This document shows, piece after piece, positions 8,400-14,107 of a stretch of 64,000 bases of DNA. Both the position numbers and the translations under genes were made by a program. Source of the stretch: Patescibacteria group bacterium (GTDB lineage Bacteria > Patescibacteriota > UBA1384 > XYA2-FULL-43-10). The stretch is taken from NCBI GenBank assembly GCA_041674405.1, contig JBAYVT010000003.1:74074-138073 (forward strand), written 5' to 3'. The notes beneath the pieces were generated by a model. The model was not told the origin of the DNA. It did not search any database and worked only from the letters and a program-made list of their open reading frames with translations. The number at the start of each line of letters is the position of its first letter. Position 1 is the first letter of the stretch.

Positions 8400-8752
8400 C
8401 TTATAACTAATATGTAACAACTAATAATCTGTTGAATAATTTCCCTCAGTTTTTCGTTTAAAGCCCCGAAGAGACCATTGGGGTTATTAGTTCTAAGTTG
8501 ATAATATACTATATTATCTGAGAAATTGCTGTGATTTTTAACTAAAAAGTTAAATCTAATAACTAATATCCAAATGAATAATCTTCTTTGGTTTTTCGTT
8601 TTTCGCCCTGAAGGGGCCCCTTTGGGGTTATTAGTTTTAGGGTTAATATCTGTGCTAGAATAAGTTGTCTATAATTTTTGAAAGGTTCCTTTGGTTATTA
8701 GTTTTTTCGCCCCGACGGGGCCCCATTGGGGTTATTAGCTGTTAGATAATTT
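8400..8752. promoter_or_regulatory. divergent promoter region containing three copies of a ~45-bp repeat unit (TTTTCGTTT...GCCCCGA(A/C)GGGGC...TTGGGGTTATTAGTT) plus AACTAATAA/TTATTAGTT inverted half-sites
   Basis: Copies at ~8450-8492, 8592-8636 and 8691-8740. Each carries a GC palindrome and the TTGGGGTTATTAG(T/C)T motif, and lies between the divergent RR and PHP genes. Confidence 0.4.
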
Positions 8753-11315: not shown

Positions 11316-12491
11316 TTACCCCGCCTTCATGGCGCGGGCGATCCGGTCCAATCCCTCCTCGATCTCCAGATCGTTGTACGTAAGGCTCATCCGGAAGTAG
11401 CCTTCCCCGCCCGCGCCGAACGCCGAGCCCGGGGTGAGGACGACGTGCGCCGTTTCCACCAGATGCTCACAGAACTCCGCACTGGTCGAGAACCCATCCG
11501 GGATCGGCGCCCAGATGTAAGGAGTCGCCTGAGGCGGTTCGATGCTCCAGCCCAGCGAGTTCAAGGTACCGACGACGAGGTCCCGGCGCTGGCCATAGAC
11601 GAAACAGATGTCCTCGCAGGCCCGCCGATATTCTTTGAGCACCCGGGCACCGGCGAACTGGATGAAACGAGGGGTCCCATTGTCGGTGTTGCCCTTGTAG
11701 CGCTTCAGGTACGACAACACCTCTGGGTTGCCGACGGCCGCGCCGATCCGCCACCCGGTCATGTTAAACCACTTGCTGTGAGAGATGATCTCCACAGCGA
11801 CCTCAGACGCCCCTAGTACCTCCAGGATGCTCGGCTGCCGGATGTTGCCCAGATTCACCAGGCTGTAGGCGGCGTCGTGGACGACAAGGAGCTTGTGCTC
11901 CTTTGCGAATTCGACGGCCTCAGCGAAGAAGTCGAGGCCAGCCACCGCAGTGGTGGGGTTGTTGGGGTAGTTGAGCCAGAGGATCTTCGCTTTCTGGCAA
12001 ATCACCCCCTCGATACTACCCAGGTCGGGGAGCCAGTACGGCGGCTCGAGCTTCATGTGGTAGGTGTTCGCCCCGAACATGTGCTGGGCGATCTCGTAGG
12101 TAGGGTATCCGGGGTCAGGCACAATCCCGAGATCCAGCGGATTCAGGAAGGCCCCAGCGAGCTGGACGATCGCCTCTTTGGACCCACTCGTCCGCAAGAT
12201 CTGGTTGTCCTCGAGCGTGACGCCGAAGTAGCTCTGGTAGAACCGGCACACCTCGGAGTCGAAGTCCGTGACAGGCATGTCATCCCCGTAGCGAAACCGA
12301 TCGGGATCCGTGACATCGTTGGCGGCACGGACCATCTCATCCACAGCACAAAGCGGAGTGGGCATGTCGGGGTCGCCGATTCCGAACGAGACGACATGGA
12401 CACCGCTCGCCTTGAGAGTGTTGATCTTCTCCCGCAGCGAGGCAAACGGATATGGCGGCAATGATGCGAGACGGCCTGAAGGCTCAAGCAT
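11316..12491 (-). CDS. class I/II PLP-dependent aminotransferase (LL-diaminopimelate/Ala aminotransferase-like)
   Basis: N-terminal LPPYPFASL...SFGIGDPDMPTP. PLP-lysine motif SHSKWFNMTGWRIG. About 62% GC island in the AT-rich backbone. Confidence 0.8.
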   Translation of the reverse strand: MLEPSGRLASLPPYPFASLREKINTLKASGVHVVSFGIGDPDMPTPLCAVDEMVRAANDVTDPDRFRYGDDMPVTDFDSEVCRFYQSYFGVTLEDNQILRTSGSKEAIVQLAGAFLNPLDLGIVPDPGYPTYEIAQHMFGANTYHMKLEPPYWLPDLGSIEGVICQKAKILWLNYPNNPTTAVAGLDFFAEAVEFAKEHKLLVVHDAAYSLVNLGNIRQPSILEVLGASEVAVEIISHSKWFNMTGWRIGAAVGNPEVLSYLKRYKGNTDNGTPRFIQFAGARVLKEYRRACEDICFVYGQRRDLVVGTLNSLGWSIEPPQATPYIWAPIPDGFSTSAEFCEHLVETAHVVLTPGSAFGAGGEGYFRMSLTYNDLEIEEGLDRIARAMKAG

Positions 12492-12761
12492 GAACGAAAC
12501 TCCTCCTGGAATGTGATATGCGTCCCGAGCGAGATAAAATTAACACATTTTATCATTTTTGTCTAGTCAAATAGCAGCATGATTTGTGAATTTCAATACC
12601 AAGCGATCTTTACAGAACGCTTCATTTTTGCTAAAATTCTTGTGTGTTTGAGAGTTATTCCCTCCGTCTCCAGCTTGCTGGAGCCGAGAGTTACCCGATA
12701 GCTCCCGTCTCCAAGCAAAACTTGGAGCCGAGGTCTCGGCTTGATATAATCAAGACGGACA

Positions 12762-13019
12762 ATGGCAGACCATTTTATTTACATTTTAGTAAGTAAAAAC
12801 GCCCCCAAAACTTATATAGGTGTAACATCAGATATCGAAAAGAGAATATCTGAACACAATTCTGGCTCAAATGCTTACACCAGAAAATATAAGCCTTGGA
12901 AGCTTTTTTATTCCGAAAAATTTGATGATAGATCAGTGGCATTAAAAAGAGAAATTTATCTGAAATCGCACGCAGGGCGGAACTTCATAAAAAAGCTTTT
13001 TCAAAATATTCCCCGATAG
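12762..13019 (+). CDS. GIY-YIG nuclease superfamily protein (small stand-alone, UPF0213-like)
   Basis: YILVSKNAPKTYIGVTSDIEKRISEHNSG GIY-YIG motif. 85 aa. The last 10 nt overlap the tRNA-Asn 5' end. Confidence 0.75.
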   Translation: MADHFIYILVSKNAPKTYIGVTSDIEKRISEHNSGSNAYTRKYKPWKLFYSEKFDDRSVALKREIYLKSHAGRNFIKKLFQNIPR

Positions 13020-13084
13020 CTCAATGGCAGAGCGCTTCGCTGTTAACGAAGATGTTGCTGGTTCGAGTCCAGCTCGGGGAGCCA
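13010..13084 (+). tRNA. tRNA-Asn (anticodon GTT)
   Basis: Cloverleaf read by hand: acceptor tccccga/tcgggga, anticodon loop CTGTTAA, T-arm ggttcgagtcc, discriminator G and encoded CCA. Confidence 0.85.
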
Positions 13085-13221
13085 AGAAAAAAGATTGATT
13101 GTGTAATCAGTCTTTTTTCTTTGTTCAGTAGAATGGACTCGAACCAAGGATGGGGTCGGGAAACATGGGTTTCCCGCTGAGGAAAATACTAAAAACCGAG
13201 GGTTTTTAGAGTGGTTCATAT

Positions 13222-13247
13222 GTCCAGCTCGGGGGGCCAAAGAAAAA
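13222..13247 (+). repeat. decayed direct repeat of the tRNA-Asn 3' end (gtccagctcgggg.gccaa.gaaaaa)
   Basis: 13-nt identity with tRNA 13067-13079 plus a similar A-rich tail, about 150 bp downstream. Resembles an att-site scar. Confidence 0.5.
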
Positions 13248-13255
13248 TGACACTT

Positions 13256-14107
13256 TTATGATTTTGATCCTTGAAATGTCCCACTGCAGCGTCCCGAGCT
13301 CCAGGTGCCGGAGACTTTGCTACCGGAAAAAGTCATATTTACGACTGTTGGGGTGGAGCCAGCGCTAAGCGTCTCAGCCGCCTTACCATTCGAATCGATT
13401 TTTGCATTGCCGCCCCAAGGATTTTGAACCTCGCCGCCAGTGACATAGAAGGCTGTCAGCTCGACTGACGAGTCACAATTCGGCTTTTGCATTGTAGTTT
13501 GGTAATAACCGTCCCAGTTGTTGCTGATTGGCCCGCCAGGCAAGTCGGTCGTTACATTGGTGACAGTGTGGTGAATGTACGGCCAGATAAAGACAAAAAA
13601 GACGACGACTAAAATTATGAACATAGCAGCGACTGCACAGCCACTAGCAGCTGTCTGCTTCTTTGCAGCCGGCGGAGACATTTCTGCGGCAGAATTCTCT
13701 TCTTTTTTGTTAGATTCTTTCATCTTGAGATTCTTTTTGTTCTGTTTCACTAAGGCCCAGATTCCAAGGATAAAAATTGCCAAGCACAACAAGGTTATTC
13801 CGAGAACTAATTCGGTAGCATTTTTAGTTTTATTGCCAGTGAAAAAATAGGCGGTTGTCCCGCTCAGGGCCAAAAAAGAAATGATGATCAAAAAAATTAA
13901 AAGGCAGGAAAGACAACCTGTGTTTTTCGCCGGAGGAGCAACCGGTTTAATGTCCTTGTCTTTATTATCACCAGGGACGTCGCCAATCAGATTGCCGCAT
14001 TTTGGGCAGAACTTATCTTTCGCCTCGACTTTCTCGCCGCATTTAGAACAAAACATTCCCCCTCCGAAATTTTTAGGTGATCTGACAACATCACAATTAT
14101 ACCACAA
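13256..14107 (-). CDS. hypothetical membrane protein with N-terminal zinc ribbon
   Basis: CSKCGEKVEAKDKFCPKCGN zinc ribbon, then 3-4 TM helices and a C-terminal extracellular domain. Confidence 0.5.
   Translation of the reverse strand: MWYNCDVVRSPKNFGGGMFCSKCGEKVEAKDKFCPKCGNLIGDVPGDNKDKDIKPVAPPAKNTGCLSCLLIFLIIISFLALSGTTAYFFTGNKTKNATELVLGITLLCLAIFILGIWALVKQNKKNLKMKESNKKEENSAAEMSPPAAKKQTAASGCAVAAMFIILVVVFFVFIWPYIHHTVTNVTTDLPGGPISNNWDGYYQTTMQKPNCDSSVELTAFYVTGGEVQNPWGGNAKIDSNGKAAETLSAGSTPTVVNMTFSGSKVSGTWSSGRCSGTFQGSKS

Follow-up and report, generated by a model that had tools for sequence, protein, structure and literature searches.

The stretch of DNA analysed here ("the window") comprises 64,000 nucleotides (nt) from a Patescibacteria group bacterium (contig JBAYVT010000003.1, positions 74,074 to 138,073), and our subject is a group of hairpins at 12663-12759 that precedes a very small gene for a GIY-YIG nuclease and an adjoining tRNA-Asn gene. 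An earlier interpretation made from the letters alone (the sequence-only reading) had described two tandem hairpins followed by a third, and had suggested a small RNA (sRNA), an attenuator or a protein-binding operator in the region between this gene and a divergent aminotransferase gene. We find that the hairpins belong to a conserved fold with four arms, here termed module X, which splits a leftover piece of a tRNA gene in front of the tiny nuclease gene; the earlier interpretation was right in supposing selection for structure and wrong as to the kind of element.

Anatomy of the locus

The unit is made up of the following features, all of which lie on the + strand.

12609-12637, +: predicted sigma-70-like promoter, TTTACA-17-TAAAAT with TG (10/12 matches)
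12650-12690, +: truncated upstream copy of the unit, holding hairpin 1 (from local alignment and repeats)
12692-12704, +: duplicated tRNA-Asn 5' fragment, positions 1-13 (acceptor 5' strand, U8 A9, D-stem 5' strand), a direct repeat
12705-12759, +: module X, a 55-nt perfect four-way junction (from folds, 12-locus conservation and a covariance model)
12705-08/12755-58, +: helix P1 of X, the closing helix
12709-15/12721-27, +: helix P2 of X, equal to hairpin 2
12728-31/12736-39, +: helix P3 of X, the "third hairpin" CCGAGGTCTCGG, an invariant palindrome CCGAG-nn-CTCGG
12740-45/12749-54, +: helix P4 of X, whose loop and stem carry TGATATAAT
12760-12769, +: duplicated tRNA-Asn D-loop piece (positions 13/14-22) CAATGGCAGA, which matches 13022-31 and has an ATG at 12762
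12762-13019, +: open reading frame (ORF) of 85 amino acids (aa) for the GIY-YIG protein, with the D-loop ATG as start codon and, as stop codon, TAG (13017-13019), which coincides with U8-A9-G10 of tRNA-Asn
13010-13084, +: tRNA-Asn(GTT), intact and sharing its first 10 nt with the end of the ORF (ARAGORN; Rfam tRNA, 70.3 bits)
13079-13126, +: AT-rich hairpin (22-nt arms, 86% complementary), then a T-run, right after the tRNA; not in the terminator scan list
13208-13247, +: decayed repeat of the 3' portion of tRNA-Asn, with the 3' half of the T-arm, the 3' strand of the acceptor, CCA and flanking sequence

The first 22 nt of tRNA-Asn are duplicated upstream of the gene, and the duplicate is split by X at the D-arm (position 12/13). 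The left fragment reads TACCCGATAGCTC, as against TCCCCGATAGCTC in the tRNA-Asn gene; TTACCCGATAGCTC (12691-12704) matches 13009-13022, CCCGATAGCTC occurs only at the left fragment and in the tRNA-Asn gene (0.02 expected by chance), and with X removed the copy and the gene agree at 23 of 24 positions. The description of this DNA as an ordinary intergenic regulatory region is not tenable, given that a duplicate of the tRNA-Asn 5' end houses the module and that the ORF begins in the D-loop copy and ends inside a real tRNA. The end of P1 stands 3 nt from the ATG of the ORF, which is preceded by no Shine-Dalgarno-like motif. The promoter at 12609-12637 is presumably a captured tRNA-Asn promoter that would drive the whole unit; a terminator scan gave no terminator between this promoter and the tRNA, and none on the + strand between 12420 and the tRNA, and the hairpin and T-run at 13079-13126 are the probable terminator of the unit.

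The 85-aa protein matches the Pfam GIY-YIG family (PF01541, 7e-20, residues 4-73) and, in the PDB, 1ywl (4.8e-12), 1zg2 (1.6e-10) and SLX1 (1.9e-5), and the catalytic residues Y7, Y18, R28, H32 and E64 are invariant in 16 sequences. It is predicted to be a stand-alone, minimal-domain GIY-YIG nuclease of the Slx1/UPF0213 lineage, and is identical to a protein (P0001) from a metagenome-assembled genome named "Patescibacteria group bacterium", although an exact look-up of the ORF product gave no match. The 2006 survey of the superfamily (Dunin-Horkawicz, PMC1564403) treated the Slx1-like lineage as repair-related with its role unknown, and reported one fusion with a TrmH-like tRNA D-loop methyltransferase, taken there as hinting at a link with RNA metabolism. 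The literature searched contained nothing that connects the UPF0213 family with nesting in tRNA genes, duplication of tRNA fragments or a hairpin module. A group I intron endonuclease was considered and rejected, the NCBIfam model scoring 22.6 bits against a cut-off of 56.

The region carrying both tandem hairpins reads GAGAGTTATTCCCTCCGTCTCCAGCTTGCTGGAGCCGAGAGTTACCCGATAGCTCCCGTCTCCAAGCAAAACTTGGAGCCGAGGTCTCGGCTTGATATAATCAAGACGGACAATGGCAGACC, with TCCGTCTCCAGCTTGCTGGAGCCGAG at 12663-12688 and CCCGTCTCCAAGCAAAACTTGGAGCCGAG at 12704-12732. Hairpin 1 has the stem CTCCAG/CTGGAG (12668-73/12678-83) and the loop CTTG, a seventh C-G pair implying a loop of 2 nt; hairpin 2 has the stem CTCCAAG/CTTGGAG (12709-15/12721-27) and the loop CAAAA. 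The 9- and 10-mers CCGTCTCCA and TGGAGCCGAG are exact local direct repeats common to both hairpin units, and elsewhere in the 64-kb window neither occurs above chance. Both hairpins are thus real and directly repeated, as first described, although the transcript of hairpin 1 given then was one G too long, and their stems do differ whilst remaining paired (G-C to A-T, plus one extra pair or a shift).

Alignment and repeats mark hairpin 1 as what is left of a second, truncated copy of the unit. An alignment of the two units extends over about 40 nt, GAGAGTTA...CCGTCTCC...TGGAGCCGAG, with a score of 38 compared with 15.3 +/- 3.1 for shuffled sequences (0/2000 reach the observed value). The truncated copy contains the flank GAGAGTTA, the tRNA-start remnant TTCCC, the P1 5' strand CCGT (12664-67), hairpin 1 as its copy of P2, and the P3 5' arm CCGAG (12684-88); a GAG microhomology joins it to the full unit, and it folds on its own with z -3.0. 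The paired substitutions had been taken as the signature of a functional RNA structure, and the structure is indeed selected, its helices being kept by compensatory changes in 12 distinct loci. This claim holds because of the comparison between genomes and not because of the two copies in the window, which are not independent evidence, since hairpin 1 belongs to a truncated tandem duplicate in which P2 is complete but P1 is reduced to its 5' strand and P3 to one half.

Fold and conservation of module X

The four helices of X are mutually compatible and leave no unpaired nucleotide at the junction. Against shuffled sequences the module gives z -4.0 and -5.1 when folded as RNA and -5.2 and -6.1 as DNA (both strands). 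The third hairpin had been thought to overlap a -10 element, but CCGAGGTCTCGG (12728-12739) does not overlap TGATATAAT (12742-12750), which sits instead in a fourth hairpin, CTTGAT-ATA-ATCAAG (12740-12754). This hairpin, the closing helix CCGT/ACGG (12705-08/12755-58) and the split tRNA-Asn 5' copy around the hairpins were all absent from the sequence-only reading.

Relatives were gathered in two ways, from contigs that encode 50-73% identical proteins and by scanning genome and metagenome collections for the pattern of X. The 12 distinct sequences of the type found in the window (X1), namely that of the window and those of 11 further loci, were aligned with MAFFT (alignment A1), and the following results refer to this alignment. 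Pairing holds in 94.6% of the cells of the four-helix structure, compared with 84% in column shuffles (0/500 reach the observed value) and 27-44% when partners are slid. Double changes occur at 9 pairs, all in P2 and P4: across loci P2 takes the forms CTCCAAG/CTTGGAG, CTCGC/GCGAG and CTCGCAA/TTGCGAG, and P4 the forms CTTGAT/ATCAAG, CTTAAT/ATTAAG and CTCGAT/ATCGAG. P1, P3 and the junction-proximal pairs are invariant in sequence, and the loops differ among loci in both length and sequence. RNAalifold independently recovers the four helices, the sole difference being a one-step shift at the junction. The covariation of P2 and P4 and the invariance of the junction-proximal pairs of P1 and P3 demonstrate, at the level of sequence comparison, that selection maintains the four-helix fold. 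A covariance model assigns 87 bits to the X of the window and detects no second full copy in the 64 kb.

The conservation and covariation that the sequence-only reading had proposed to look for in related regions were thus found, in 12 distinct loci, whereas the Rfam scan it had also proposed returned no family that matches the hairpins: at gathering thresholds over the whole window it reports two tRNAs, and at E <= 10 over 12480-13300 the interval 12650-12760 yields only a 14.5-bit chance match. Other classes of structured element were also considered for X and rejected. A riboswitch or attenuator pocket has no counterpart, there being no conserved unpaired nucleotides and no Shine-Dalgarno motif to sequester. 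A ribozyme or intron does not fit a module that has no conserved unpaired core, is represented by simple hairpins in sister cassettes and splits a truncated copy rather than the working tRNA; for an archaeal-type bulge-helix-bulge intron in particular, P1 pairs the ends of X directly, without 3-nt bulges. A group I intron, for which the criterion is at least about 200 nt, a place in the anticodon loop and a P1-P9 core, is excluded for a 55-nt module in the D-arm that has no RF00028-type match and interrupts a truncated copy. Finally, a dispersed repeat like miniature inverted-repeat transposable elements (MITEs) or repetitive extragenic palindromes was set aside, the 64 kb of this genome that the analysis covered having one full and one truncated adjacent copy and X1 occurring in the scans only in the tRNA-Asn D-arm.

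Related loci and sister cassettes

The 11 further distinct loci (L001, L005, L006, L007, L022/L081, L041, L082, L084, L085, L086 and L035) come from Saccharibacteria, Berkelbacteria and unclassified assemblies of the candidate phyla radiation (CPR). Their common order is promoter, tRNA-Asn positions 1-13, X, CAATGG with its ATG, GIY-YIG ORF and intact tRNA-Asn, with X upstream of the GIY-YIG gene on the coding strand; L035 departs from it in having X on the other side of the tRNA. The flanking genes differ at every locus, and the aminotransferase next to the window unit is absent from all the others. In 11 of 14 related loci the tRNA fragment is preceded by a promoter-like sequence of the form TTTACA/TTGACA-17-TAnnnT. 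All 14 loci measured have the end of their ORF within a range from 12 nt before to 23 nt after tRNA position 1, and six of them use U8-A9-G10 as stop codon. Among the 12 X1-type loci, 8 have the D-loop ATG as the annotated start of the ORF. In L082 a two-codon mini-ORF ATGGCATGA at 1021-1030 overlaps the real ATG, and the D-loop ATG is not the start; in L041 (4229-4240) the ORF begins at a second ATG 7 nt downstream, and in L086 the start is displaced downstream by 16 nt and into a different frame. In L001, L005, L006, L007, L022, L041, L082, L084, L085 and L086 the left fragment equals, or comes close to, the tRNA-Asn acceptor sequence of the same genome. Agreement with the acceptor sequence of the local tRNA, which varies between genomes, is the usual case, and this argues for recent or repeated formation of the arrangement.

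In the pattern scan of 185,579 species genomes the low-GC matches all lie directly after TAGCT[CT] of a tRNA-Asn copy, and 69 of the 72 matches are chance occurrences in GC-rich genomes. Within IMG/VR there was no true copy of X1, all 77 pattern matches being attributable to chance.

Two further features were observed in these loci. In L084 (594-700) a decayed tRNA-Asn downstream of the intact one has an X-like module in its D-arm, and the same decayed copy carries in its anticodon loop, after CTGTT, a 31-nt insertion with X-like ends (TCCGCC...GAGACGGG). In addition, inverted repeats of 12-19 nt bracket the intact tRNA-Asn in L035 (3890-3995, minus), L082 (1268-1375) and L084 (485-600); the ORF supplies the left arm with its 3' end, and the sequences differ by locus yet stay complementary (CTTTTTAGCAATT/AATTGCTAAAAAG; TTTCAGTAATTA/TAATTACTGAAA; AAATAAATAAGTTCTTA/TAAGAACTTATTTTTATTT). 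These repeats could be a processing stem or a feature that acts at the level of DNA.

Remoter relatives of the ORF (50-58% identity) show a matching layout with other tRNAs and other GC-rich hairpins, as follows.

L088: tRNA-Gln, with a hairpin after position 10
L090: tRNA-Glu, with a hairpin (X2) after position 10
L092: tRNA-Asn, with an L090-type hairpin X2, 29/30 identical; the ORFs are 56% identical
L091: tRNA-Arg, with two 30-nt repeats in place of the D-loop
L171: tRNA-Arg, with a hairpin after position 9
L170 and the second cassette of L001: tRNA-Asn-type, with the palindrome CCTGCCTGCCGGYAGGCAGG (X3) at 21/22

All of the hairpin types end in a GC-rich inverted CCNGYC...GRCNGG. X3, a perfect 20-nt palindrome CCTGCCTGCCGG[C/T]AGGCAGG, takes up the D-loop in truncated copies of tRNAs that precede two GIY-YIG ORFs (L001, 1404-1712; L170/L214, about 500-560). 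In IMG/VR the X3 sites often lie between short direct repeats. The same palindrome is seen in the variable loop of a tRNA-Met(CAT)-like gene in L203 (2239-2330) and L175 (about 8580-8670), and in L203 ARAGORN calls a 92-nt tRNA-Met, as though the X3 insertion were a long variable arm. In L170 (815-1000) the tRNA that follows the GIY-YIG ORF is broken after ...GGCTGT, at anticodon 35/36, so that ARAGORN finds no tRNA; this is where group I introns have been reported in Patescibacteria tRNA-Asn/Asp (PMC13011429), and the contig, although filed as viral in IMG/VR, looks CPR-like.

Mobility, rival explanations and known systems

The anatomy of the locus, its recurrence in 11 other loci, the covariation of X and the matching layout before tRNA-Gln, -Glu and -Arg are established by sequence comparison. 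As to what these mean, the reading we prefer, to which we would give about an even chance, is that X is a cis element of a selfish nuclease cassette nested in tRNA genes, expressed from a captured tRNA promoter and acting through its shape. The cassette is apparently mobile, now or formerly, for which the signs are indirect. L022 contains a perfect 343-nt tandem double, i.e. two identical units before one tRNA, and in L001 a single tRNA is preceded by two different cassettes in series, both of which have a tRNA fragment and a hairpin of their own. A resident tRNA-Asn is split in L082, its halves being the left fragment (TCCCCGG...) and a downstream decayed copy that ends in CCGGGGAGCCA, and the cassette between them carries a tRNA-Asn with a different acceptor stem. 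The near-identity of X2 in cassettes with diverged ORFs, and the differing flanks, point in the same direction.

Under the proposed mechanism the cassette would target the D-arm region of tRNA genes, and its insertion would leave the resident 5' fragment at the left and regenerate, or bring, a working tRNA at the right. The captured tRNA promoter would then give a single transcript composed of leader, nuclease mRNA and pre-tRNA. By breaking the left tRNA repeat, X may prevent it from folding and competing as a tRNA, and may also prevent recombination with the right repeat that would delete the ORF. Synthesis of the nuclease would stay low, its AUG having no Shine-Dalgarno motif and lying 3 nt from a stable junction, and the invariant junction core of X is predicted to be bound, probably, by the cassette's own structure-specific nuclease. 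Where the stop codon falls inside the tRNA, RNase P cleavage would yield a non-stop mRNA and could limit expression further.

Several observations weigh against this proposal. No empty site was recovered by way of the neighbouring aminotransferase, of which the nearest other relatives are 54% identical and belong to other phyla. The sample amounts to only 12 distinct X1 sequences, and the fold leaves the strand and the molecule undecided, X being equally stable on both strands and as RNA or DNA; wobble pairs (about 4 G.U against 1-2 C.A) are too few to assign either. Co-transcription, the folding of X as RNA and the control of translation enter the proposal as deductions from sequence. The protein, at 85 aa, has no DNA-binding domain, and a regenerated tRNA keeps any putative target sequence, which leaves self-immunity without an account. 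X-type modules also occur downstream of the intact tRNA in L035, L082 and L084, in decayed tRNA-Asn copies with no ORF behind them, and these fit a boundary element at the level of DNA better than an mRNA leader. Lastly, X3 is promiscuous, occurring where the context is unrelated, with 54 sites in 47 IMG/VR stretches (L173-L219) of GC 0.33-0.70 and several copies per contig. X3 may be explained as a mini-element of promiscuous habit, as a terminator-like hairpin of a common type or as a technical artefact, and given its promiscuity some of the hairpins may be independent insertions.

The rival that survives best, although we consider it only about half as probable as the selfish cis element, is that X exerts its effect in DNA and not in RNA: its four-way junction, extruded or formed in a single strand, would provide the Slx1-like nuclease with a site of cleavage, recognition or immunity; X would then mark the exact point at which the cassette (X, D-loop copy, ORF and tRNA 1-13) was copied into the D-arm by break repair. 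The closest solved relatives of the protein, UPF0213 and SLX1, are nucleases specific for junctions or branches, going by knowledge of the family (PMC1564403), and X is a perfect junction with a one-step branch-migration ambiguity that folds as DNA on both strands (z -5 to -6). The hairpin is always in the D-stem beside the cloverleaf junction (positions 9/10 to 13/14, or 21/22), the ORF-less copies of L035, L082 and L084 stand at the right-hand border, and the tandem double of L022 is as expected from re-insertion at a regenerated site. Against this, cleavage at X is itself a prediction and a break there would hit the donor rather than the recipient, the regenerated tRNA stays a target, and neither the constant 3-nt spacing between P1 and ATG nor the constant orientation to the ORF would be required.

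A broader form of this idea, which we regard as improbable, is that Slx1-like mini-nucleases (UPF0213) are the engines of an unrecognised class of mobile elements that nest in tRNA genes and find their targets by DNA shape and not by sequence. The nuclease would recognise the cloverleaf or four-way junction of tRNA genes, and X, in DNA and cut the D-stem, and repair would copy in the hairpin module, the D-loop copy, the ORF and the tRNA 5' part, such that the promoter is captured and the tRNA regenerated. Targeting by DNA shape would explain how one family could invade tRNA-Asn, -Gln, -Glu and -Arg genes.

A third possibility, which we judge quite unlikely, develops the operator suggestion of the sequence-only reading: TTGGAG (12722-27)-17-TGaTATAAT (12742-50) would be an internal promoter for an almost leaderless mRNA, and the palindrome CCGAGnnCTCGG in its spacer a repressor operator. 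The extended -10 is perfect, the spacer is 17 nt, the ATG lies 11 nt past the -10 with no Shine-Dalgarno-like motif, the spacer palindrome is invariant in the 12 loci, and I-TevI offers the precedent of a GIY-YIG enzyme that represses its own promoter. The site is nevertheless not in the promoter scan list and its -35 has only 3/6 matches. The arrangement fits just 3 of the 12 loci (the window, L006 and L085), so the suggestion fails as a general account; L041, L035, L082, L086 and L007 lack a well-placed TAnnnT in the P4 loop or a TTG -35, and L022 has a spacing of 19. Moreover, a promoter has no need of the covariation in P2 and P4, and a strong promoter-like site is already present upstream.

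Slightly less credible still is the notion that X is an independent miniature palindromic insertion, comparable to mitochondrial GC clusters or a MITE, whose landing site was a dead tRNA fragment and which is of no consequence to the GIY-YIG gene. The spread of X3 (CCTGCCTGCCGGYAGGCAGG), including its presence in a tRNA-Met variable loop, the 29/30 identity of X2 in two tRNA contexts with 56% identical ORFs, and the shared inverted ends CCNGYC...GRCNGG would all be in keeping with such an origin. X1, however, occurs only in the tRNA-Asn D-arm context in the scans, once per locus, with one full copy in the window, and it has diverged together with ORFs of 60-73% identity whilst its helices were kept by compensation, which indicates selection and not recent spread; no target-site duplication was seen.

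A classical cis-regulatory RNA or sRNA (riboswitch or attenuator) that controls the GIY-YIG gene or the divergent aminotransferase gene is highly improbable, for although X is a stably folding, conserved and covarying structure upstream of an ORF, it has no Rfam match even at E <= 10, no terminator, antiterminator or other alternative pairing and no conserved unpaired core or unpaired ligand nucleotides, the aminotransferase is missing at every other locus, non-homologous hairpins occupy the equivalent place in the sister cassettes, and the element belongs to a tRNA fragment.

On the reading of X as a cis element of a selfish cassette, the closest known systems each share part of this arrangement. 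Like the free-standing GIY-YIG homing genes of the T4 segB type (PMC2330249), the cassette places a nuclease gene among or against tRNA genes, and is sporadic and apparently selfish. SegB and I-TevI, however, have a DNA-binding domain and exceed 200 aa, whereas the cassette protein is a bare 85-aa catalytic domain of the Slx1/UPF0213 kind and its nuclease activity is predicted; also unlike segB, the cassette ORF begins in a duplicated D-loop, ends inside a tRNA and is preceded by a four-way-junction module. The UPF0213 proteins of known structure (1ywl and 1zg2) are the best sequence matches, and they and the cassette protein are alike minimal domains of unknown function. Tyrosine-integrase tRNA islands and prophages likewise insert in a tRNA gene, leave a partial duplicate on one side and keep an intact tRNA, but they duplicate the tRNA 3' end and encode an integrase, whereas in the cassette a structured module divides a duplicate of the 5' end (positions 1 to about 22) and the cargo, of about 250 nt, includes no recombinase. 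An island formed by an integrase was also considered for the window and rejected, since the repeats, which derive from the tRNA 5' end, enclose no ORF other than the GIY-YIG gene, and the separate 3'-end repeat 13222-13247 encloses just about 155 nt. The cassette therefore does not have the defining features of homing genes or tRNA islands: it has no DNA-binding domain, no recombinase, and a 5' rather than a 3' duplication.

Group I introns occupy position 35/36 of Patescibacteria tRNA-Asn/Asp genes (Nakagawa 2026, PMC13011429); the phylum and the tRNA gene hot spot are the same, and L170 appears to carry both kinds of insertion. The mobile GC clusters of yeast mitochondrial DNA (e.g. PMC4478555) may offer an analogy, as short GC-rich hairpin insertions in AT-rich genomes that also have free-standing GIY-YIG ORFs; there they are multi-copy and dispersed, whereas X1 exists in one copy, keeps to a single site and a single gene, and is conserved with covariation. 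The literature searched contained no equivalent arrangement, but most subscription journals lie outside it, so an earlier description is possible.

I-TevI represses its own synthesis through an operator that resembles its homing site and is not cut. By analogy, the region upstream of the cassette ORF is the target tRNA sequence broken by X, and binding of the leader by the nuclease may be conjectured, although the cassette protein lacks the DNA-binding domain of I-TevI.

Stand-alone GIY-YIG proteins of the Slx1-like kind occur widely among bacteria, and no function has been assigned to them since their definition some twenty years ago; the present family of loci gives them a concrete context, and the four-way junction that precedes the gene is the kind of substrate cut by the eukaryotic relative SLX1. 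If mobile, the cassette would represent a new and very small form of tRNA-gene parasitism, about 320 nt in all and without a recombinase, and would strengthen the case for CPR tRNA-Asn genes as hot spots of selfish elements. X is in addition a candidate RNA or DNA motif family for Rfam-type curation, and tRNA fragments with hairpin insertions can mislead the annotation of tRNAs and genes in CPR genomes.

Two neighbouring regions of the window complete the description. Downstream of the unit, 13222-13247 is 88% identical to 13067-13092, and the decayed copy at 13208-13247 is a possible right remnant of a disrupted resident tRNA-Asn, by analogy with the split halves of the resident tRNA in L082. 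The surrounding interval 13085-13250 contains tRNA debris, in which 13134-13146 is perfectly complementary to the T-arm at 13059-13071 (an inverted copy) and perfect hairpins are formed by CGGGAAAC-ATGG-GTTTCCCG near 13157-13176 and CTAAAAACC-GAG-GGTTTTTAG at 13189-13209; this debris as a whole may be the same right remnant, or the scar of another insertion. On the other side, the minus-strand LL-diaminopimelate-type aminotransferase gene (11316-12491) has a GC content of about 0.61, compared with 0.40-0.46 in its neighbourhood, and its best relatives, only 50-54% identical, are from Planctomycetota and Fervidibacteria and not from CPR; it was probably acquired horizontally.

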